Shown: in pieces, positions 2,180 through 16,908 of the stretch | Layout of the letters: each line of letters starts with the position of its first letter | Numbering within the stretch: the stretch's first letter is position 1 | Assembly (NCBI RefSeq): GCF_054482525.1 | Contig: NZ_CM137006.1 | Strand: one strand, 5' to 3' | Length of the DNA: 64,000 nt | Notes under the pieces: generated by a model | Seen by the model: only the letters and a program-made list of their open reading frames with translations | The model's database searches: none | What the model was told of the DNA's origin: nothing | Made by a program: the position numbers and the translations under genes

Positions 2180-2244
2180 TGATCTTACCCAGCAATAGTG
2201 GACACGCGGCTAAGTGAGTAAACTCTCAGTCAGAGGTGACTCAC

Positions 2245-2544
2245 ATGACAAAAACAGTATCAACCAGTAAAAAACCCCGTAAACAGCATTCGCCTGAATT
2301 TCGCAGTGAAGCCCTGAAGCTTGCTGAACGCATCGGTGTTACTGCCGCAGCCCGTGAACTCAGCCTGTATGAATCACAACTCTACAACTGGCGCAGTAAA
2401 CAGCAAAATCAGCAGACGTCTTCTGAACGTGAACTGGAGATGTCTACCGAGATTGCACGTCTCAAACGCCAGCTGGCAGAACGGGATGAAGAGCTGGCTA
2501 TCCTCCAAAAGGCCGCGACATACTTCGCGAAGCGCCTGAAATGA
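2245..2544 (+). CDS. insE: IS3 transposase OrfA (InsE-like, 99 aa)
   Basis: [31 protein letters not shown]... helix-turn-helix/leucine-zipper OrfA of IS3; the provided ORF starts 3 codons upstream. Confidence 0.92.
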
Positions 2545-3407
2545 AGTATGTCTTTATTGAAAAACATCAGGCTGAGTTCAGCATCAAAGCAATGTGCCGC
2601 GTGCTCCGGGTGGCCCGCAGCGGCTGGTATACGTGGTGTCAGCGGCGGACAAGGATAAGCACGCGTCAGCAGTTCCGCCAACACTGCGACAGCGTTGTCC
2701 TCGCGGCTTTTACCCGGTCAAAACAGCGTTACGGTGCCCCACGCCTGACGGATGAACTGCGTGCTCAGGGTTACCCCTTTAACGTAAAAACCGTGGCGGC
2801 AAGCCTGCGCCGTCAGGGACTGAGGGCAAAGGCCTCCCGGAAGTTCAGCCCGGTCAGCTACCGCGCACACGGCCTGCCTGTGTCAGAAAATCTGTTGGAG
2901 CAGGATTTTTACGCCAGTGGCCCGAACCAGAAGTGGGCAGGAGACATCACGTACTTACGTACAGATGAAGGCTGGCTGTATCTGGCAGTGGTCATTGACC
3001 TGTGGTCACGTGCCGTTATTGGCTGGTCAATGTCGCCACGCATGACGGCGCAACTGGCCTGCGATGCCCTGCAGATGGCGCTGTGGCGGCGTAAGAGGCC
3101 CCGGAACGTTATCGTTCACACGGACCGTGGAGGCCAGTACTGTTCAGCAGATTATCAGGCGCAACTGAAGCGGCATAATCTGCGTGGAAGTATGAGCGCA
3201 AAAGGTTGCTGCTACGATAATGCCTGCGTGGAAAGCTTCTTTCATTCGCTGAAAGTGGAATGTATCCATGGAGAACACTTTATCAGCCGGGAAATAATGC
3301 GGGCAACGGTGTTTAATTATATCGAATGTGATTACAATCGGTGGCGGCGGCACAGTTGGTGTGGCGGCCTCAGTCCGGAACAATTTGAAAACAAGAACCT
3401 CGCTTAG
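2541..3407 (+). CDS. insF: IS3 transposase OrfB (InsF-like, 288 aa, DDE integrase domain)
   Basis: 288-aa ORF overlapping orfA by ATGA; contains HTDRGGQY...[14 protein letters not shown]-type motifs; expected to be expressed as an OrfAB fusion by -1 frameshift. Confidence 0.92.
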
Positions 3408-3440
3408 GCCTGTGTCCATATTACGTGGGTAGGATCAAGC

Positions 3441-3541
3441 TTGAGGTGCTGGCGCGTGGGGCAACGGTAAGCTATTGTGGGGAAAAATTTACGTATCCGG
3501 TCGCTGATGAGGGGGCGGGATTTGTAGTATGTAAATGGTGA
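3441..3541 (+). pseudogene. A: Displaced 3' remnant of gene A (last ~34 codons) downstream of IS3
   Basis: Joining 2179 to 3441 (removing IS3 and one TSD copy) continues the A frame as LEVLARGATVSYCGEKFTYPVADEGAGFVVCKW-stop at 3539-3541, giving ~760 aa, the expected gpA length. Confidence 0.6.
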
Positions 3542-3791
3542 AGGTAAGATGGGTTTTTGTCTGTAACGCATTGTTTTATATGGTTATATTTGATTTTTTG
3601 TAACGTGTGTTCATGTTTTCTTTGCTATGATTCATACTACTGCTATAGATGGCTAAAGATATAGGTTGTTGCTTAAATGTATATAGATAATTAAACGCCT
3701 TAATTTTTGATGAGATGTGTCATAAAGTGGAGTCTGTATGGCATAATTTTATGGGGCATGACATTTATACCATTCTTAAAAAGGAGATTAT

Positions 3792-5459
3792 ATGCTGATA
3801 ACTTTCTCAGGACAAAATTATAAGGCATACGAGAGTTTTAAGTTGTCTTTAAAGCCATTGACAATATTATTAGGGGCAAATAGTTGTGGGAAAAGTGCAT
3901 TAATTAACTCTTTGTTGATGTTTTCTCAGTCTGTTGATTCAATGTCATTGTCTGATTCTGCTTTAAGGTTGAATGGGCCTAAAGTTGGGATGGGAGAAGC
4001 ATTAAATATAATAAAAAATAAAGATGACTCCAAAACACTTAGTTTTAGTTTTGATTTTTCTGATAATACAGTGGTTAAAAATGGCATTGATACACTGAGG
4101 AGAGAAACTTTAGAATCATTTGCTATGATTATGCGATTCACAGTGCAAACGGTGAAAAATAATGACGCTTTGGTTACGAAAGCCAATGATTTAATAAATG
4201 AGGCTTCGAATGCGATCGTTAACTTTGACGAATTTGAGGAAGCTGAGTTAAAGGTTATCGCTGATAAGTTATGTCAATTACTTTTGCTTTTTAGGGAGGC
4301 GGGTGATAATGTCACATTTAGTCGTGCGACCTCAGAAAATTTACGCAAATTTATATATGAATGTCCATTAAAGAGAATAAAGGATTGTCTAACTAAAGTT
4401 ATTTCCATTTCAGGAAATAAATTGTCGGCTTCTAAGATAAGCTATGATTTCAAATATGATAAAAATAAAGGGGTGATAAAAGTTTCGAGGCTTGTTCTTT
4501 TAAATAAGAATGATGAAAAGATAGTTGAGCTATTACCAAAGAAGAATAATGTCGTTGTATTATCAGATGTTATCCCTCAAGAAGTGTTTAGAGGATGTCA
4601 GTCAGATATCTTAGAAATCATCAATCCTTATTCGCTGGGGCTGTTCCCTGTCAATAATGGGCGTGGTTTTTATGTTTTTTTTGGTAACTCTTATAATCCT
4701 GTTGTTAATTTTTTATCACATGTTGTTTCTTTGGGTGTATTAATGCTTTCAAAAATGTTTGATGGTGAAAATGTTAATCACGTCAGCCCATTGAGAGCAT
4801 TTCCTCAGCGATATTATCTATTAGACAAAACAGTCAATCATGCGCAGTTAAATTCTGCCGATGGATCTGAGTTAGCGGAGATCTTGAAGAAAAATACAAA
4901 AATAACAGAAAATATAAATCTTCTTCTGGCTGAATTTAATTTGGCTGTTGATATAGTTAAAGTTAATGACATAATTCATAAAATTGTTATAAACCAAGAT
5001 GCTGTTAATTTAGAGTTGACAGATGTGGGGTTTGGAATATCACAAGTATTGCCTGTCTTGGTTCAAGCTTATTTGTCACCAAAGGGTTCGATTACAATAA
5101 TAGAACAACCAGAAATACATTTGCATCCTAAAATGCAGGCATGGTTAACGGACGCATTAATTAAAATATCTATGCAAGAAAAGAAAGTATTTATTATTGA
5201 AACCCATAGCGATGCTTTAGTTAGACGAATTAGATTAAGAATTGTTGATGAATCGAGTGAACTTACAGAGGATCATGTTGCAATCTACCATCTTGAGCGC
5301 GATGAAGAGGGAACATCAACATTGCTGAATAGGGTGGCTGTAAATTCTGATGGAGATATCACATGGCCAAATGAATTTATGGATGTTGAGATTCAGGATA
5401 CAATTAGAATACAGGAGTTAAAGATACAGAAAATAATGAACTCAAAGGGGGTTCATTGA
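3792..5459 (+). CDS. ABC-type (AAA_15/AAA_21-like) ATPase, 555 aa; first gene of cargo operon in the P2 A-cos accessory slot; candidate defence-system ATPase
   Basis: Walker A GANSCGKS at aa 28-35 (nt 3873-3896); Walker B/D-loop ITIIEQPEIHLHP at aa 434-446 (nt 5091-5129); H-loop IIETHS; ~400-aa insert between Walker A and B; AAGGAG RBS 6 nt upstream; AT-rich codon usage unlike flanking phage genes. Confidence 0.75.
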   Translation: MLITFSGQNYKAYESFKLSLKPLTILLGANSCGKSALINSLLMFSQSVDSMSLSDSALRLNGPKVGMGEALNIIKNKDDSKTLSFSFDFSDNTVVKNGIDTLRRETLESFAMIMRFTVQTVKNNDALVTKANDLINEASNAIVNFDEFEEAELKVIADKLCQLLLLFREAGDNVTFSRATSENLRKFIYECPLKRIKDCLTKVISISGNKLSASKISYDFKYDKNKGVIKVSRLVLLNKNDEKIVELLPKKNNVVVLSDVIPQEVFRGCQSDILEIINPYSLGLFPVNNGRGFYVFFGNSYNPVVNFLSHVVSLGVLMLSKMFDGENVNHVSPLRAFPQRYYLLDKTVNHAQLNSADGSELAEILKKNTKITENINLLLAEFNLAVDIVKVNDIIHKIVINQDAVNLELTDVGFGISQVLPVLVQAYLSPKGSITIIEQPEIHLHPKMQAWLTDALIKISMQEKKVFIIETHSDALVRRIRLRIVDESSELTEDHVAIYHLERDEEGTSTLLNRVAVNSDGDITWPNEFMDVEIQDTIRIQELKIQKIMNSKGVH

Positions 5460-5460
5460 C

Positions 5461-6462
5461 ATGTATTGTGCAGTGTGTTTGTGTCCTGATTTTGTTGCGG
5501 CTAATATTTCTGATATTAATTTATTTAGTGGTTTTTTTATTGGAACCATTGTTAATGGTGAAAATCAGTTGATTTTAGATGCTGATGAAAAAATCCGTTT
5601 GGGCTATTTGAAATCTTGTAAAAATAACAAGGATTCTTTTTATCTGCTTCAGAAATGGGAGGCTGAATTATCTAAAGCTTCTTCAGGTAAAATATTGCTT
5701 GCACCAGTGAGTAATAGTACTGATGATATTAAGGATATAGTTGTTTGTGCAGTTGCTAACGCAGCTACCACCTTTGATAAACATATTGTGGTATTAGACA
5801 ATAATAGTTACTCTGGATATGTTGATGAATTAATTAGGCAAAGAGTTAATTTGTTAAATCTTAATAGTATAAGTTTAATATCAAAGGAGGATAGGGTGCA
5901 GCGTCCTTTGAATTTTATAAAGTTTGATAGCGATTTGTCTTGGGTGCTTCAAAGACTGGGGCGACGCTCTGCTAAAGGATATGGCGAAGATGATTTTAAT
6001 GATTTTATACGAGATATGTTATTAGCTAAAAATTATGAGGTAAAAGATCAAACTCGAGAAGGAGAGTCTCAATCGGGGAAAAAAGCCGGTGAGTTAGATC
6101 TTGTTATTGAAGATAGAGGAGAACTGTTTGCTATAATAGAAGCCTTGATTTTAAACTCTTTAGATCAAGCTAACATATTAAAGCATTATTCAAAGTTAAT
6201 TGATAACTATAATCCTATTCATGTCAAAAGGTTGTTTTTAATTGCTTATTATACAGGTGCAAAATTCGATGCCTGGTGTGAAAGATATATTGAGTATCTA
6301 AAGGGGATTACTTCGGTAGATATTGGTGTGGAATCTCATCAGATAGTTGAGGTTAAAGAAGTGGATACCCCGTACATAGGCTTAAGAAAAATTGAACATC
6401 ATTTTAGATATGCGGGGGAGCACTATTTTTGTATCCATTATGCAGTCAAAATGGCTCGGTGA
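5461..6462 (+). CDS. Hypothetical protein, 333 aa; partner of the ABC ATPase (translationally coupled); candidate effector of unknown fold
   Basis: ATG 1 nt after the ATPase stop (TGA-c-ATG); AT-rich; Cys cluster CAVCLC at N-terminus; acidic stretch GELDLVIEDRGELFAIIEAL; no motif I can assign confidently. Confidence 0.65.
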   Translation: MYCAVCLCPDFVAANISDINLFSGFFIGTIVNGENQLILDADEKIRLGYLKSCKNNKDSFYLLQKWEAELSKASSGKILLAPVSNSTDDIKDIVVCAVANAATTFDKHIVVLDNNSYSGYVDELIRQRVNLLNLNSISLISKEDRVQRPLNFIKFDSDLSWVLQRLGRRSAKGYGEDDFNDFIRDMLLAKNYEVKDQTREGESQSGKKAGELDLVIEDRGELFAIIEALILNSLDQANILKHYSKLIDNYNPIHVKRLFLIAYYTGAKFDAWCERYIEYLKGITSVDIGVESHQIVEVKEVDTPYIGLRKIEHHFRYAGEHYFCIHYAVKMAR

Positions 6463-6473
6463 TGTTTAAGATG

Positions 6474-6499
6474 AATGCACCTATAGGGTGCATCATTTT
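6474..6499 (+). terminator. Putative intrinsic terminator of the cargo operon
   Basis: Short hairpin tgcacc-tata-gggtgca followed by tcatttt immediately after the second cargo gene. Confidence 0.35.
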
Positions 6500-6599
6500 G
6501 CATGTTTAAATATGTTCTCTATGTATGTGCGCTAGGCTTGACTGGCGCGCTTATACTGTGTTTACGCAACTGCATTAAAACTGACCCATGAAGCGGGCG

Positions 6600-6618
6600 G
6601 GCGAGGCGGGGAAAGCAC
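6600..6618. other. cos: P2 cos site (19-nt cohesive-end sequence)
   Basis: GGCGAGGCGGGGAAAGCAC matches the P2 cohesive end as I recall it, located between the accessory slot and the portal gene Q as in P2. Confidence 0.8.
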
Positions 6619-6787
6619 TGCGCGCTGGCGGTGGTGCTGATTTTATTTTTTCAGCGTCTGAGCGCGTCGTGATGGCGTTTGGATTGTTCGCCGGGGCGTT
6701 GGTGTGTATGCGGGCTGTTTTGTGCGGTGGTGAGCGTGTGAGGGCGTGATGACGGGGTGTAAAAAAGCCGCCCGCAGGCGGCGATGT

Positions 6788-7822
6788 TCAGCCGTTGTCA
6801 GTGTCCAGTGAGTAGTTTTTAAAGCGGATGACCTCCTGACCGAGCCAGCCGTTTATCTCGCGGATCCTGTCCTGTAACGGGATAAGCTCATTGCGGACAA
6901 AGACCTTTGCCACTTTCTCAATATCACCCAGCGACCCGACGTTCTCCGGCTTGCCGCCCATCAACTGAAAAGGGATGCGGTGCGCGTCCAGCAGGTCTGC
7001 GGCGCTGGCTTTTTTGATATTAAAAAAATCGTCCTTCGTTGCCACTTCACTGAGCGGGATAATTTTAATACCGTCGGCTTTTCCCTGTGGGGCGTAGAGA
7101 AACAGGTTTTTAAAGTTGTTGCGGCCTTTCGACTTCACCATGTTTTCGCGAAGCATTTCGATATCGTTGCGATCCTGCACGGCATCGGTGACGTACATGA
7201 TGTATCCGGCATGTGCGCCGTTTTCGTAATACTTGCGGCGGAACAGCGTGGCCGACTCATTCAGCCAGGCAGAGTTAAGGGCGCTGAGATATTCCGGCAG
7301 GCCGTACAGCTCCTGATTGATATCCGGCTCCAGCAGGTGAAACACGGAGCCGGGCGCGAAAGGTGTCGGCTCGTTGAAGGATGGCACCCACCAGTAAACA
7401 TCCTCCTCCACGCCACGGCGGGTATATTTTGCCGGTGAGGTTTCCAGTCTGATGACCTTACCGGTAGTGCTGTAGCGCTTTTCCAGAAACGCATTACCGA
7501 ACACCAGAAAATCCAGCACAAAGCGGCTGAAATCCTGCTGGGAAAGCCACGGGTGCGGGATAAACGTTGAGGCCAGAATATTACGTTTGACGTAAATCGG
7601 TGAGCTGTGATGCACGGCAGCACGCAGGCTTTTTGCCAGACCGGTAAAGCTGACCGGTGGCTCATACCATCTGCCGTTACTGATGCACTCGACGTAATCC
7701 AGAATATCACGGCGGTCGAGTACCGGCACCGGCTCACCAAAGGTGAATGCCTCCATTTTCGGGGCGCTGGCAGTCATTGTTTTCACCGCTGGCTGCGGTG
7801 TTTTCCCTTTTTTCTTACTCAT
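6788..7822 (-). CDS. Q: P2-like portal protein gpQ (344 aa)
   Basis: 344-aa ORF MSKKKGKTPQPAVKT..., size and position (leftward, next to cos) match P2 Q. Confidence 0.92.
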   Translation of the reverse strand: MSKKKGKTPQPAVKTMTASAPKMEAFTFGEPVPVLDRRDILDYVECISNGRWYEPPVSFTGLAKSLRAAVHHSSPIYVKRNILASTFIPHPWLSQQDFSRFVLDFLVFGNAFLEKRYSTTGKVIRLETSPAKYTRRGVEEDVYWWVPSFNEPTPFAPGSVFHLLEPDINQELYGLPEYLSALNSAWLNESATLFRRKYYENGAHAGYIMYVTDAVQDRNDIEMLRENMVKSKGRNNFKNLFLYAPQGKADGIKIIPLSEVATKDDFFNIKKASAADLLDAHRIPFQLMGGKPENVGSLGDIEKVAKVFVRNELIPLQDRIREINGWLGQEVIRFKNYSLDTDNG

Positions 7823-9594
7823 CAGTAAAACTCCAGAATGGTGGATGTCAGCGGGGTGCTGATACCGGCGGTGAGTGGCTCATTTAACAGGGCGTGCATG
7901 GTCGCCCAGGCGAGGTCGGCGTGGCTGGCTTCCTCGCTGCGGCTGGCCTCATAGGTGGCGCTGCGTCCGCTGCTGGTCATGGTCTTGCGGATAGCCATAA
8001 ACGAGCTGGTGATGTCGGTGGCGCTGACGTCATATTCCAGACAGCCACGGCGAATAACGTCTTTTGCCTTGAGCACCATTGCGGTTTTCATTTCCGGCGT
8101 GTAGCGGATATCGCGTGCGGCGGGATAGAACGAGCGAACGAGCTGGAACACGCCGACACCGAGGCCGGTGGCATCAATTCCGATGTATTCGACGTTGTAT
8201 TTTTCGGTGAGTTTGCGGATGGATTCAGCCTGGGTGGCAAAGTCCATGCCTTTCCACTGGTGACGCTCAAGTATTCTGAATTTGCCACCGGCCACCACCG
8301 GCGGTGCCAGCACCACGCATCCGGCACTGTCGCCACGGTGTGACGGGTCGTAACCAATCCAGACCGGGCGGGAGCCGAACGGATTCGCGGCAAACGGCGC
8401 ATAGTCTTCCCATTCTTCCAGCGTGTCGACCATGCAGCGTTGCAGCTCCTCGAACGGGAACACCGACGCCTTGTCGTCAACAAATTCACACATGAACAGG
8501 TTTTTAAAATCGTCGGCGCTGTTTTCGCGTTTAAGCTGCTCAATGTCGAACAGCGTGCAGCCACCTTTCAGGGCGTCCTCAATGGTGACAATCTGCCGCC
8601 ACTGACCGTCCGCACAGAGAAGCCCACCGGCAAGAGCGTTATGACTGACGTCGATTTCCACGCGTTCGGCGGCGCTGGCGCGTCCCCGGTTGAACAGTTC
8701 ACCCGACCAGAACGGGTAGGCGTCGTGCGCCAGCGTGGACGGGGTGGAGAAATAGGTCGAGCGCAGGTGACTCTGTGAGGCCATACCTGATGCCACCTTA
8801 CGCAGTACCTGAAAATTCGGTATCCAGAAAATCTCGTCGACGTACAGGTCGCCGTTATGGCTCTGCGCGGTGTTGGAGTTGGTGCCGAGAAAAATCAGTT
8901 TTGCGCCGTTATTGCCCAGGACAATCGGGTCACCGGTCAGGTCAACGTCAACCAGCCGGGCAAAGGCGATGATGTATTCGCGGAACACATACGCCTGCGT
9001 TTTACTGGCCGACAGAAAAATCTGGTTATGACCGGTTTTCAGGGCGCGCAGCAGCGCCTCGCGGGAAAAATAAAACGTCGCGCCAATCTGGCGGGATTTC
9101 AGGATATCGCGGATGCGGTGCTCAAGCCCGGCGCGATACCAGTGCAACTGATATTCGAAAGACTGCTCAAAGAAAATCTGCTCCAGCTTTTCGATAGCCT
9201 CGTCACTGAAAAAATTCTTTTTCGGTTTGCGCCGCCCGCCTTTGTTGCGGTTAGCGATGTTCGGATTAAGGTCTGCCTCGTTGCCGGTCTGGCTGTAGCG
9301 GTTTACCCGTGCCAGTCGTTCAATCTGGCGTCCGAGCAGGTCAATTTCCTTGAAGTCACCGCCGGTTTTCTGCGGTTTGATGATGAGCTGGGTCAGCCGC
9401 GCTTCCAGACTCATTTCGACACGGCTGATGGGGGCAACGCTGTCCCAGCCGTCGCGCTGTTTCCAGCTCTGCACCGTCGGGCGTTTCATCTGCAACATGG
9501 CGGCAATCTGCGGCACGGAAAACCCCTGCCAGTACAGCAGCGCCGCCTGACGACGCGGGTCGTGCAAAAGAGTGGTGTCTGTGGTGATGGTCAT
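7822..9594 (-). CDS. P: P2-like terminase large (ATPase) subunit gpP (590 aa)
   Basis: Start taken at MTITTDTT (ORF track begins 10 codons upstream); 590 aa as P2 gpP; divergent from O. Confidence 0.9.
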   Translation of the reverse strand: MTITTDTTLLHDPRRQAALLYWQGFSVPQIAAMLQMKRPTVQSWKQRDGWDSVAPISRVEMSLEARLTQLIIKPQKTGGDFKEIDLLGRQIERLARVNRYSQTGNEADLNPNIANRNKGGRRKPKKNFFSDEAIEKLEQIFFEQSFEYQLHWYRAGLEHRIRDILKSRQIGATFYFSREALLRALKTGHNQIFLSASKTQAYVFREYIIAFARLVDVDLTGDPIVLGNNGAKLIFLGTNSNTAQSHNGDLYVDEIFWIPNFQVLRKVASGMASQSHLRSTYFSTPSTLAHDAYPFWSGELFNRGRASAAERVEIDVSHNALAGGLLCADGQWRQIVTIEDALKGGCTLFDIEQLKRENSADDFKNLFMCEFVDDKASVFPFEELQRCMVDTLEEWEDYAPFAANPFGSRPVWIGYDPSHRGDSAGCVVLAPPVVAGGKFRILERHQWKGMDFATQAESIRKLTEKYNVEYIGIDATGLGVGVFQLVRSFYPAARDIRYTPEMKTAMVLKAKDVIRRGCLEYDVSATDITSSFMAIRKTMTSSGRSATYEASRSEEASHADLAWATMHALLNEPLTAGISTPLTSTILEFY

Positions 9595-9767
9595 GAATAC
9601 CTCGCCGTGATGAATACACGGCAAGGCTACTGAGTCGCGCCCCGCGATTCGCTAAGGTGCTGTTGTGTCAGTGATAAGCCATCCGGGACTGATGGCGGAG
9701 GATGCGCATCGTCGGGAAACTGATGCCGACATGTGACTCCTCTAATCACTATTCAGGACTCCTGACA

Positions 9768-10622
9768 ATGGCAAAAAAAGTCTCAAAATTCTTTCGTATC
9801 GGCGTTGAGGGTGACACCTGTGACGGGCGTGTCATCAGTGCGCAGGATATTCAGGAAATGGCCGAAACCTTTGACCCGCGAGTCTATGGTTGCCGCATTA
9901 ACCTGGAACATCTGCGCGGCATCCTGCCTGACGGTATTTTTAAGCGTTATGGCGATGTGGTCGAACTGAAGGCCGAAAAGATTGACGATGATTCGGCGCT
10001 GAAAGGCAAATGGGCGCTGTTTGCGAAAATCACCCCGACCGATGACCTTATCGCGATGAACAAGGCCGCGCAGAAGGTCTACACCTCAATGGAAATTCAG
10101 CCGAACTTTGCCAACACCGGCAAATGTTATCTGGTGGGTCTGGCCGTCACCGATGACCCGGCAAGCCTCGGCACGGAATACCTGGAATTCTGCCGCACGG
10201 CAAAACACAACCCCCTGAACCGCTTCAAATTAAGCCCTGAAAACCTGATTTCAGTGGCAACGCCCGTTGAGCTGGAATTTGAAGACCTGCCTGAAACCGT
10301 GTTCACCGCCCTGACCGAAAAGGTGAAGTCCATTTTTGGCCGCAAACAGGCCAGCGATGACGCCCGTCTGAATGACGTGCATGAAGCGGTGACCGCTGTT
10401 GCTGAACATGTGCAGGAAAAACTGAGCGCCACTGAGCAGCGCCTCGCTGAGATGGAAACCGCTTTTTCCGCACTTAAGCAGGATGTGACTGACAGGGCGG
10501 ATGAAACCAGCCAGGCATTCACCCGCCTGAAAAACAGTCTCGACCACACCGAAAGTCTGACCCAGCAGCGCCGCAGCAAGGCCACCGGTGGTGGCGGTGA
10601 CGCCCTGATGACGAACTGCTGA
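9768..10622 (+). CDS. O: P2-like capsid scaffolding protein gpO (284 aa)
   Basis: Start at MAKKVSKFF (ATG 9768); length 284 aa as P2 gpO. Confidence 0.9.
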   Translation: MAKKVSKFFRIGVEGDTCDGRVISAQDIQEMAETFDPRVYGCRINLEHLRGILPDGIFKRYGDVVELKAEKIDDDSALKGKWALFAKITPTDDLIAMNKAAQKVYTSMEIQPNFANTGKCYLVGLAVTDDPASLGTEYLEFCRTAKHNPLNRFKLSPENLISVATPVELEFEDLPETVFTALTEKVKSIFGRKQASDDARLNDVHEAVTAVAEHVQEKLSATEQRLAEMETAFSALKQDVTDRADETSQAFTRLKNSLDHTESLTQQRRSKATGGGGDALMTNC

Positions 10623-10680
10623 CCGGCGTCAGTCAGTCCGGGAAAACCTTCACGATTAACCCTTAATTTCAGGAAAAACT

Positions 10681-11754
10681 ATGCGCCAGGAAACCCGCTT
10701 TAAATTTAATGCCTACCTGTCCCGTGTTGCCGAACTGAACGGCATCGACGCCGGTGATGTGTCGAAAAAATTCACCGTTGAACCGTCGGTCACCCAGACC
10801 CTGATGAACACCATGCAGGAGTCCTCTGACTTTCTGACCCGCATCAACATTGTGCCGGTCAGCGAAATGAAAGGGGAAAAAATTGGCATCGGTGTCACCG
10901 GCTCCATCGCCAGCACCACCGACACCGCCGGTGGCACCGAGCGTCAGCCGAAGGACTTCTCGAAGCTGGCGTCAAACAAGTACGAATGCGACCAGATTAA
11001 CTTCGATTTTTATATCCGCTACAAAACGCTGGACCTGTGGGCGCGTTATCAGGATTTCCAGCTCCGTGTCCGTAACGCCATTATCAAACGCCAGTCCCTT
11101 GATTTAATCATGGCCGGTTTTAACGGCGTGAGGCGTGCCGAAACCTCTGACCGCAGCAGCAATCCGATGCTGCAGGATGTGGCGGTCGGCTGGCTGCAGA
11201 AATACCGCAATGAAGCCCCGGCGCGCGTGATGAGCAAGGTCACTGACGAGGAAGGGCACACCACCTCTGAGGTTATCCGCGTGGGTAAGGGCGGTGATTA
11301 TGCCAGCCTTGACGCACTGGTGATGGATGCGACCAACAACCTGATTGAGCCGTGGTATCAGGAAGACCCTGACCTTGTGGTGATTGTGGGACGTCAGCTA
11401 CTGGCGGACAAGTATTTTCCCATCGTCAACAAGGAGCAGGACAACAGCGAAATGCTGGCCGCTGACGTCATCATCAGCCAGAAACGCATCGGTAACCTGC
11501 CGGCGGTACGCGTCCCGTACTTCCCGGCGGATGCGATGCTCATCACAAAGCTGGAAAACCTGTCCATCTACTACATGGATGACAGCCATCGCCGCGTGAT
11601 TGAGGAAAACCCGAAACTCGACCGCGTGGAGAACTACGAGTCAATGAACATTGATTACGTGGTGGAAGACTACGCCGCCGGTTGTCTGGTGGAAAAAATT
11701 AAGGTCGGTGATTTCTCCACACTGGCTAAAGCGACCGCAGAGCCGGGAGCGTAA
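10681..11754 (+). CDS. N: P2-like major capsid protein gpN (357 aa)
   Basis: 357-aa ORF MRQETRFKFNAYLSRVAELNG...; size and order match P2 N. Confidence 0.93.
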   Translation: MRQETRFKFNAYLSRVAELNGIDAGDVSKKFTVEPSVTQTLMNTMQESSDFLTRINIVPVSEMKGEKIGIGVTGSIASTTDTAGGTERQPKDFSKLASNKYECDQINFDFYIRYKTLDLWARYQDFQLRVRNAIIKRQSLDLIMAGFNGVRRAETSDRSSNPMLQDVAVGWLQKYRNEAPARVMSKVTDEEGHTTSEVIRVGKGGDYASLDALVMDATNNLIEPWYQEDPDLVVIVGRQLLADKYFPIVNKEQDNSEMLAADVIISQKRIGNLPAVRVPYFPADAMLITKLENLSIYYMDDSHRRVIEENPKLDRVENYESMNIDYVVEDYAAGCLVEKIKVGDFSTLAKATAEPGA

Positions 11755-15523: not shown

Positions 15524-15968
15524 GTTTAAGCGTTTTGAAGACCGGCTGACCGGACTTATTGAATCGCTGTCACCGTCAGGGCGTCGGCGACTGAGTGCCG
15601 AACTGGCGAAACGTCTGCGGCAGAGTCAGCAGCGTCGGGTGATGGCTCAGAAAGCCCCGGACGGCACACCCTACGCGCCACGCCAGCAGCAGAGCGCCAG
15701 AAAAAAGACCGGTCGTGTTAAGCGAAAAATGTTTGCGAAACTTATCACCAGTCGTTTTTTGCATATCCGCGCCAGCCCGGAACAGGCATCAATGGAATTT
15801 TACGGCGGGAAGTCACCGAAAATCGCCAGCGTGCATCAGTTCGGCCTGTCGGAAGAAACCCGGAAAGACGGTAAGAAAATTGATTATCCGGCGCGTCCTC
15901 TGCTCGGCTTTACCGGTGAGGATGTGCAGATGATTGAAGAGATTATCCTGGCTCACCTTGAGCGTTAG
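15516..15968 (+). CDS. S: P2-like tail completion protein gpS (150 aa)
   Basis: 150-aa ORF overlapping R end; P2 order. Confidence 0.88.
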   Translation: MNEFKRFEDRLTGLIESLSPSGRRRLSAELAKRLRQSQQRRVMAQKAPDGTPYAPRQQQSARKKTGRVKRKMFAKLITSRFLHIRASPEQASMEFYGGKSPKIASVHQFGLSEETRKDGKKIDYPARPLLGFTGEDVQMIEEIILAHLER

Positions 15969-15998
15969 TTTTATCCAGGCAGAGGCTGATGCGCAATT

Positions 15999-16033
15999 AA
16001 ACATTGAGCGGCCATGCTGGTCGCTCAATGTTT
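15999..16033. terminator. Bidirectional stem-loop between S (+) and the reverse-strand moron
   Basis: 12-bp perfect inverted repeat aaacattgagcg...cgctcaatgttt with 11-nt loop, between convergent genes. Confidence 0.45.
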
Positions 16034-16039
16034 AGAGGT

Positions 16040-16825
16040 TTATGAGTGATTTTTATTTGATGCTTTGTATTCTACAACCTTCTTATTGGCGTAAAGGAAT
16101 TTTGTATATGACAGGAATATAACCAGACCTGAAATGAAATAGATGAGGGATATTATTAATAATGCTTTTTTTTGGCTGTTATTATCTTTAATCTCCTGAC
16201 TTAACCATTCCGAGTCCTCCTCGTTTAGCTGTAAGAGATTATTGCAGGCGATCTCAGGAAGTGTGTCTTTTATAAATACGTTTCGTAGCCTCTTGCAATC
16301 GGCAAGGCTATAAGTTTTATTGAATTCAACTGTTTTATTGTTGAAGGATAAAAGAACTTTGTCACTATAAACATAGTACATCATATTTTTATATGGTATG
16401 CCTATGGCATCTCTTACTATAGCGGATTGTTTGTTGTGTATATAACATGCGAAGAGAATATAAATAATGCTGGACAGAATTACAATTATTGTTTTAATTA
16501 TGTGTGGTGGTTTTGTTATGTCACCCCAGAAGCGAGTAAGAAAAAAATACGATGTTTTTAGTTTTCCATCAATCAGCCCCTGCTGTATCATTCTCACATC
16601 TTCGATGCCTGATACATTGATTCCGTTAATTATTTTAAATAGTTGAATGTCGCGCCATTTTTTGTCGAGCATTTTTAACTTTCTGTCTGAATACTCAAAA
16701 TTGAAATGATGTGCAATAAACCTCATAAGATTACTTTTACCAAAGGTAACAAATGTTAATGCTATTAATAAAAATAGATACAAAGAGATAAACCACCACG
16801 CATTAGTCACATTATCACTGAACAT
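16040..16825 (-). CDS. Moron: predicted membrane protein (261 aa, about three hydrophobic segments) in the S-V intergenic slot
   Basis: Opposite strand to the late operons; strongly AT-rich, Lys/Asn/Ile-rich; hydrophobic segments WWFISLYLFLLIALTFVTF, IIKTIIVILSSIIYILFACYI, ALLIISLIYFISGLVIFLSY. Confidence 0.7.
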   Translation of the reverse strand: MFSDNVTNAWWFISLYLFLLIALTFVTFGKSNLMRFIAHHFNFEYSDRKLKMLDKKWRDIQLFKIINGINVSGIEDVRMIQQGLIDGKLKTSYFFLTRFWGDITKPPHIIKTIIVILSSIIYILFACYIHNKQSAIVRDAIGIPYKNMMYYVYSDKVLLSFNNKTVEFNKTYSLADCKRLRNVFIKDTLPEIACNNLLQLNEEDSEWLSQEIKDNNSQKKALLIISLIYFISGLVIFLSYTKFLYANKKVVEYKASNKNHS

Positions 16826-16908
16826 TACGCTCTCCTCGAATGTTGTATGGTCGTTCTACAAATGAATCCAGATAGCATAACTTTTATATATTGTGCAATC
16901 TCACACGC

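Follow-up and report, generated by a model that had tools for sequence, protein, structure and literature searches.

Organization of the locus

The window analysed here, a 64,000-nucleotide stretch of contig NZ_CM137006.1 (assembly GCF_054482525.1), carries a P2-like prophage, in which a cassette of two genes lies between the end of replication gene A (position 3541) and the cohesive-end site cos. The two genes were deposited in 2006 as ORF555 and ORF333 of P2-EC5, presumably by Odegrip et al. 2006, and these names are kept here. In the open reading frame (ORF) list of the window, ORF555 occupies 3792-5459 (+) and ORF333 5461-6462 (+), with a single base between the TGA stop codon of the first (5457-5459) and the ATG of the second (5461); the two form a tightly coupled operon. 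Purine-rich motifs that resemble Shine-Dalgarno sequences precede both genes, AGGAG at 3782-3786 before ORF555 and AAGGGGG at 5445-5451 before ORF333. The segment 3542-6598 has a guanine plus cytosine (GC) fraction of 0.337 and both ORFs one of 0.335, whereas gene A reaches 0.542 and the portal/terminase genes 0.559.

A preliminary description of this DNA had placed in the P2 A-to-cos accessory slot a foreign, AT-rich operon, made of an ABC-type ATPase and a translationally coupled 333-residue partner, and on these points it is borne out by the composition, by the 1-base gap and by the limits of the slot. The right edge is marked by the 19-mer GGCGAGGCGGGGAAAGCAC at 6600-6618, read directly in the sequence, which we take to be the P2 cohesive end, and the flank 6566-6787 matches genomes of P2-family phages at 94-96%. 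The P2 gpA-gpQ interval is a hotspot that houses old/tin and many validated defence systems (PMC9122126, PMC9519451).

The ORF555 ATPase

ORF555 is, by its sequence matches, an ABC ATPase of the OLD-ABC/AAA_15 group and of the DUF3696/NsnB/HEC-03 type. Its best match among the PADLOC models is NsnB of the Menshen system (1.9e-52), followed by the HEC-03 ATPase, HEC-03B (7.7e-42), by PDC-M55A (4.1e-41) and by AriA of PARIS (1.2e-27); GajA, PD-T4-4 and others match more weakly, and the GajA hidden Markov model covers ATPase segments only (1e-9 to 1e-10). Pfam recognizes AAA_15 (1.8e-23) and AAA_21, and the alignment with the experimentally validated HEC-03 ATPase reaches 32% identity over 270 amino acids (BLASTP, 4e-27), plus an N-terminal P-loop segment. 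NCBIfam models remain below their thresholds (MAD3 with 40 bits for a cut-off of 420, the retron Eco8 effector with 32 bits for a cut-off of 250), and the only PHROGs match is phrog_21420, a family of unknown function.

The Walker A motif is found at residues 28-35 (nt 3873-3896), from G28 to K34-S35, and its lysine is the one that the preliminary description had named. R335, in the segment SPLRAFPQRYY, replaces the glutamine of the Q-loop, the signature motif reads D411-V-G-F-G-I-S-Q (nt 5022-5045) and Walker B reads I-I-E438-Q439-P-E441 (nt 5091-5114, with E438-Q439 at 5103-5108). These four elements and the motif residue H472 are invariant across 43 ORF555 homologues, and the glutamine at the position of the Walker B catalytic base (Q439) is found in all 43 as well as in the validated HEC-03 ATPase. 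A glutamine at this position is the natural counterpart of the classic hydrolysis-dead E-to-Q mutant of ABC proteins. NsnB departs from the ABC consensus in having E-N for DE in Walker B, R for Q in the Q-loop and GxG for SGG in the signature (Li et al. 2025, PMC12065111), and ORF555 has the corresponding traits by which NsnB-type ATPases are recognized, namely E438-Q439, R335 and G413-F-G415.

The AlphaFold (AF2) model of ORF555, which has a mean predicted local distance difference test score (pLDDT) of 83.5 and a predicted template modelling score of 0.82, ends in a short β-hairpin and a C-terminal helix (residues 534-551) with no TOPRIM domain, in agreement with the earlier statement that this ATPase is not P2 Old. 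The nearest solved folds, with identities of 10-13%, are those of GajA (the best, Foldseek E 1e-9), the retron Eco8 effector, OLD and PtuA, and Rad50 and SMC heads are also among the structural matches; no close relative was found among solved structures. Residues from about 90 to 325 form the variable Insert-1, which is the part that differs most among the 43 homologues and which has the highest nonsynonymous divergence (dN, 0.052) and synonymous divergence (dS) between the alleles of the window and of P2-EC5.

Fold and predicted active site of ORF333

ORF333 folds into two domains in its AlphaFold model, which was built from 43 sequences (pLDDT 86.7). The first, N-terminal one (residues 1-135, 5461..5865, +) shows a PIN-like α/β fold without the canonical four-acid site, D40 being its sole invariant acid, and is predicted to act as a module for docking to the ATPase. 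The C-terminal domain (residues 150-333, 5908..6462, +) has a predicted restriction-endonuclease-like (REase-like) fold of the PD-(D/E)xK type, in which D196, E200, E211, D213, E217, E227, H242 and K245 are invariant. Read from this model, ORF333 would combine an inactive PIN-like domain with a putative nuclease, whose active-site lysine is presumably supplied by K245. The preliminary description had found no recognizable catalytic signature in the partner, a view that the predicted fold, with its invariant acidic, histidine and lysine residues, does not support.

Comparisons with family models and solved structures add little to the fold. Pfam and NCBIfam give marginal matches only (PDDEXK_4 at an independent E-value of 0.11; purC, E 0.056, scoring 12.9 bits where the cut-off is 189.9), PHROGs gives nothing, and a search of the PDB with the sequence profile of ORF333 returned nothing at E<=1. 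When the broader nuclease-domain alignment was used for the PDB search, the leucine-rich repeat (LRR), Roc and COR parts of some members dominated the result, which was uninformative on the nuclease domain. The partner has no DUF4435/TOPRIM identity of the AriB type and no HNH match in Pfam or PADLOC, as had been noted before. Readings of ORF333 as a Toprim/OLD protein, as an HNH nuclease or as the antitoxin of a toxin-antitoxin pair are discarded on the evidence of its fold and family.

Distribution and co-inheritance

Twelve loci with homologues of the cassette were compared, from Escherichia, Serratia, Pantoea, Aeromonas, Shewanella, Pseudomonas and Stutzerimonas. They were drawn from look-ups of contigs that encode the exact proteins, and a scan of species-representative genomes gave only 4 loci, too few for statistics. 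In all twelve a full-length ORF333 homologue comes after the ATPase gene at a spacing of -17 to +11 nt, and the pairwise identities of the ATPases and of their partners are correlated (r = 0.96, Mantel p about 2e-4). The dN/dS values relative to the 88%-identical allele of P2-EC5, 0.056 (ORF555) and 0.145 (ORF333), indicate purifying selection on both genes; since both also have many full-length homologues, they are not a chance pair of ORFs.

The cargo is rare in E. coli, being present in 5 of 5426 complete genomes, and the exact ORF555 and ORF333 proteins occur in more than 200 draft contigs. In Serratia marcescens (L005/L006) and in another E. coli lineage (L010), the same P2 A-Q slot holds divergent alleles (49% identity), whose ATPases share about 50% of their residues with ORF555 and whose orientation relative to the phage backbone is opposite to that in the window, which indicates that the hotspot has taken up the cassette more than once and independently. 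A Pseudomonas copy lies inside an island of the P4-type integrase/AlpA kind. In Enterobacter roggenkampii (L007-L009), chromosomal copies are found by msrA/tamA, where the ATPase, next to an IS1 InsA fragment, is shortened to 410 or 371 residues and the 331-residue partner is intact; the module may be decaying there, or the partner may persist alone. Among the E. coli genomes listed, many P2-like prophages that match the flanks of the cassette only (H6-H25) have a "DUF7380 domain-containing protein" in the slot, which is present in about 19 of all 25 matches listed; the corresponding protein of phage vB_EcoM-569R9 is annotated as DUF4209.

Comparison with known defence systems

HEC-03, which consists of an ABC ATPase and a PIN protein, protects E. 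coli, requires both genes for protection and is toxic on induction (Payne et al., 10.1101/2024.01.29.577857); its source proteins are WP_025259138 (ATPase) and WP_025259137 (PIN protein of 157 amino acids) of Pseudomonas cichorii. The cassette resembles it in having two overlapping or abutting genes, of which the first encodes a DUF3696-type ATPase and the second a protein with a PIN fold, and in the absence of NsnA. The ATPase of HEC-03 has the motifs FMEQPEIHLHP and TDVGFGVSQ, and its alignment with ORF555 shows FMEQPEIHLHP and TDVGFGxSQ in common; an E-Q Walker B, a GFG signature and a xHSxxLLRRLxxRI element are thus found in both proteins. The two systems differ in the partner, since ORF333 has 333 residues instead of 157, has an additional REase-like domain and lacks catalytic acids in its PIN-like domain, and also in the ATPase, which has 555 residues in the cassette and 461 in HEC-03, with a different Insert-1 that is about 100 residues longer in ORF555.

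Menshen (NsnABC; Millman et al. 2022, its domains analysed by Li et al. 2025, PMC12065111) is similar in its ATPase, as NsnB is the best PADLOC match of ORF555 and has the same motif deviations, and in the plan of NsnC, which ORF333, as modelled, would follow with an inactive PIN-like domain at the N-terminus and a predicted nuclease at the C-terminus. In a published AlphaFold 3 model, the inactive PIN (inPIN) domain of NsnC is held between the paired DUF3696 tails of an NsnB tetramer (PMC12065111), a mechanism that can be carried over directly to the cassette. No gene for the NsnA sensor (ParB-DUF262 + ParBDB) was found in any of the 12 loci, as judged by the DUF262 Pfam model on the neighbouring genes called in 10 loci and by PADLOC on the upstream ORFs in L012-L016. 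In the window, gene A and an IS3 element lie upstream of ORF555, and in the IS3-free allele of E. coli ARS-C301 gene A is directly upstream. ORF333 also matches no NsnC model of PADLOC, and its predicted PD-(D/E)xK-fold effector falls outside the 15 described families of NsnC C-domains, which comprise nine of the BECR fold, two Toprim, PLD, DUF4160, PB-UF1 and DUF2103-like (PMC12065111).

In PARIS and Septu, oligomers of an ABC ATPase restrain a nuclease until infection, and the cassette would share this logic with both. AriA of PARIS is among the PADLOC matches of ORF555 as given above, and PARIS is found in the P4 hotspot that adjoins cos; PtuA of Septu is represented among its fold matches. 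The preliminary description had likened the architecture to these two systems; the matches to NsnB and HEC-03 are much stronger than those to AriA or PtuA, ORF555 has E-Q in Walker B, and ORF333 is neither a DUF4435/TOPRIM protein such as AriB nor an HNH protein such as PtuB. P2 Old fills the same slot in P2 and has an ATPase of the same OLD-ABC clade, and GajA of Gabija gives the best structural match of ORF555; in the cassette, however, the predicted nuclease is a separate protein of REase-like and not TOPRIM fold, ORF555 lacks a C-terminal TOPRIM domain, and identity to Old and GajA is 11-13% with template modelling scores of 0.3-0.34. PDC-M55, a candidate three-gene system, has only the ATPase family in common with the cassette.

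The cassette is outside Menshen because it has no NsnA, and outside PARIS, Septu and OLD because its effector has the wrong fold; nor is it HEC-03 at the sequence level, given the mismatch of the partner and its extra domain. The earlier conclusion that no named family applies is correct insofar as PADLOC gives no complete named system and none of its 5027 models for the partner, but the ATPase can be placed in the DUF3696/NsnB/HEC-03 type. The suggestion of an undescribed system was overstated, in view of the 2006 deposit, of the validated two-gene relative HEC-03 and of the P2 hotspot catalogue (Rousset Table S5A), which lists pairs of "AAA_15/AAA_21 + hypothetical", whose membership in the same family as the cassette is unconfirmed. 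No experimental test of the ORF555/ORF333 pair was found in the literature. The architecture is partly new, within the well-established theme of immunity by an ATPase and a nuclease.

Proposed function and alternative explanations

The cassette is read here, with a probability of about 65%, as an anti-phage system of two genes, in which an ATPase of the NsnB/HEC-03 lineage is combined with a nuclease as the effector. We infer the complex, its trigger, its substrate and the defence phenotype by analogy with HEC-03, Menshen, PARIS and Septu. ORF555 would be sensor and switch in one and ORF333 the effector. A dimer or tetramer of ORF555 would dock the inactive PIN-like domain through its paired C-terminal tails and so keep the REase-like nuclease silent. 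Because no NsnA-like DNA sensor is present, direct sensing of a phage cue by ORF555 is proposed, most likely through Insert-1, where the family varies most and where dN and dS between the two alleles are highest. The cue would alter the ATP-bound state of ORF555 and release or activate the nuclease, which would cut the DNA of the phage, of the host or of both and stop phage replication. The invariant glutamine at the catalytic-base position (E438-Q439) suggests that binding of ATP, rather than its rapid hydrolysis, is the switch.

Several observations weigh against this interpretation. No phenotype is reported for ORF555/ORF333 or for any close homologue, and several of the chromosomal loci are outside obvious defence islands. 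ORF555 itself has no Pfam DUF3696 (PF12476) match at an independent E-value of 10 or below, and of the 43 members of its family, 3 match this domain at E<=1e-3 and 20 when the limit is set at E<=0.1. ORF333 has no significant match to any PADLOC model (0/5027), Pfam model or PDB chain. Its putative active site is non-canonical, having E227-x-L/M in place of (D/E)xK, so catalysis by ORF333 is a prediction and is unproven. A resemblance between the N-terminal domain and the HEC-03 PIN protein, seen by eye in the segments IVAIDD and LILDAD, was not upheld by hhalign of the 43-sequence profile against WP_025259137 (probability 0.7%, E 0.079); no sequence homology is claimed, and only the fold class is common to the two.

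The alternative that survives best, though it is unlikely, is that the cassette is an ordinary member of HEC-03, with the PIN domain as its effector and RNA as its target. The ATPases are homologous, ORF333 begins with a PIN fold and both systems are operons of two overlapping or abutting genes. However, the partner is about twice the size of that of HEC-03 (333 and 157 residues) and has no detectable sequence similarity to the PIN protein or to any PADLOC model, its PIN-like domain keeps a single invariant acid (D40), the conserved acidic cluster is in the C-terminal domain, and Insert-1 of ORF555 is different and about 100 residues longer.

That the two genes form an addiction or stabilization module of the toxin-antitoxin kind, which retains the prophage and does not defend the cell, is more improbable still. 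A nuclease-like toxin tightly coupled to a controlling partner on mobile elements would fit such a module, Pfam describes AAA_21 as a "putative AbiEii toxin", and HEC-03 is toxic when induced; on the other hand, deletion analysis of PARIS showed that similar pairs of ATPase and nuclease are not toxin-antitoxin systems, the cassette is also found at non-mobile chromosomal sites, and its relatives have direct defence phenotypes.

Two further explanations have very little probability. A degenerate Menshen system, which lost its NsnA gene and is no longer functional, would account for NsnB as the best PADLOC match, for the NsnC-like domain plan of ORF333, for the IS3 directly upstream and for the IS1-truncated copies in Enterobacter, but no DUF262/NsnA gene was found in the 12 loci by PADLOC on upstream ORFs and by Pfam on called neighbours, gene A takes that place in the IS3-free ARS-C301 allele, both genes are under purifying selection and the validated HEC-03 has the same type of ATPase working without NsnA. 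A role outside defence, as a nuclease of DNA repair or recombination or as a helper of P2 replication or packaging near cos, is equally remote: repair makes use of pairs of an ABC ATPase and a nuclease, such as Rad50-Mre11, SbcCD and RecF-type proteins, and Rad50 and SMC heads are among the structural matches of ORF555, yet the cargo is missing from nearly every P2-like prophage (5/5426 complete E. coli genomes carry it), has a foreign composition, is found in either orientation and lacks a coiled-coil insertion, and every one of the closest families consists of defence ATPases.

If the two-gene defence system proposed here were protective, it would add a third architecture to the family of NsnB/HEC-03 ATPases, made of an ATPase, an inactive PIN domain and an REase domain, and it would indicate that the transducer-effector core of Menshen works without a ParB-like sensor and that its RNase can be exchanged for a DNA nuclease. 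The cassette, which has about 3 kb, is native to E. coli and is carried by a P2-like prophage, would be an easy model for phage sensing by DUF3696-type ATPases and for the roles of ATP binding and ATP hydrolysis as a switch. A more far-reaching proposal, held tentatively and at somewhat less than even odds, is that the cassette is the first representative of a "mini-Menshen" subtype independent of NsnA, in which a hydrolysis-impaired, ATP-binding switch would sense phage directly and would control an unannotated REase-like effector family (1100 or more clusters at 50% identity, without Pfam cover) that is common to ROCO GTPases and other sensors. If true, one DNA-cutting effector would link the immune sensors of the ABC-ATPase and ROCO types.

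The nuclease domain in other proteins

The family of full-length ORF333 homologues is small. It comprises 49 clusters when grouped at 90% identity, the sources being Enterobacterales, Aeromonas, Shewanella and Pseudomonas, and all are annotated as hypothetical. The nuclease domain has a much wider distribution, with 1113 proteins at E<=1e-3 and 765 at 1e-10 in a profile search of 1.84 billion representatives. Among the 150 best matches listed, about 35 align over the full length of ORF333, and the remaining ones share residues ~140-331 only, in proteins of 150-1691 amino acids. The residues E176, D196, Q197, S203, G210, D213, E227, H242 and Y250 are invariant over this broad set. A Pfam scan of 42 sampled distant relatives showed no family in its table that covers the nuclease domain, and 10-11 of these 42 are LRR-Roc-COR-A-COR-B proteins that have the domain at their C-terminus. 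Distant relatives of the domain in the AlphaFold database carry the annotations restriction endonuclease or Mrr, and REase-fold domains are the commonest nucleic-acid effectors of NTPase-based conflict systems (PMC7159879). The domain forms a widespread family of probable effectors, unannotated and without a covering family in that Pfam scan, which is found also on bacterial ROCO GTPases, and a Pfam or DefenseFinder model of it would better annotate many candidate immune genes.

The fusions to ROCO GTPases include the proteins P0267, P0326, P0329, P0333, P0334, P0337, P0338, P0355 and others of the search. A different context is seen in Carboxylicivirga linearis (Bacteroidota), where a gene at 7461-8495 of locus L016 encodes a protein of 344 amino acids with the nuclease core SDQPRKG...AGELDLVIE...EAL...H..K and an unrelated helical N-terminal domain. 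It lies in an apparent operon between two larger genes, at 4615-7464 (949 amino acids, no PADLOC match) and at 8569-11454 (961 amino acids), the latter with a weak N-terminal match to type IIG fusions of restriction endonuclease and methyltransferase. This locus may be a different candidate system with the same effector domain.

Flanking features and other islands of the prophage

The AT-rich leader of the cassette (3542..3791, +), which was read directly in the sequence, holds the ribosome-binding site of ORF555 at 3782-3786. A consensus promoter scan of 3542-3791 gave no strong site on the + strand; from the sequence alone, TGGCATAAT at about 3739-3747 is a possible extended -10 element, and the occurrence of the cassette in both orientations among P2-like prophages implies that it has its own promoter. 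A terminator-like hairpin (6475..6493, +), found by pattern match in a consensus scan, begins 13 nt past the ORF333 stop codon and has a stem of 8 pairs and a T-rich tail.

Outside the two-gene system, an intact IS3 of 1258 bp (2180..3437, +) interrupts gene A near its 3' end, an insertion that the preliminary description had overlooked. It has terminal inverted repeats, orfA at 2236-2544 and orfB at 2541-3407 (NCBIfam IS3 transposase, 3.3e-101), and its target duplication is the 3-bp AGC, the junctions having been compared with the uninterrupted allele of E. coli ARS-C301. Gene A is divided into the fragments 1-2179 and 3438-3541, and the prophage may be replication-defective because the last ~35 codons of the gene are cut off and replaced. 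The ARS-C301 prophage, which has the same cargo without IS3, has a gene A annotated as frameshifted.

A second island of foreign composition is located at ~15900-16900 (GC 0.34), between P2 tail genes S and V. Its gene at 16040-16825 (-) encodes a protein of 261 amino acids with three predicted hydrophobic helices and no Pfam, NCBIfam or PADLOC match, which could be a superinfection-exclusion or defence moron, and the island possibly corresponds to the second defence-enriched P2 locus of Vassallo et al., a correspondence that is unconfirmed. The segment 20400-22200, in the P2 late region, is moderately AT-rich (GC 0.43-0.50) and probably contains variable tail-fibre/assembly genes.

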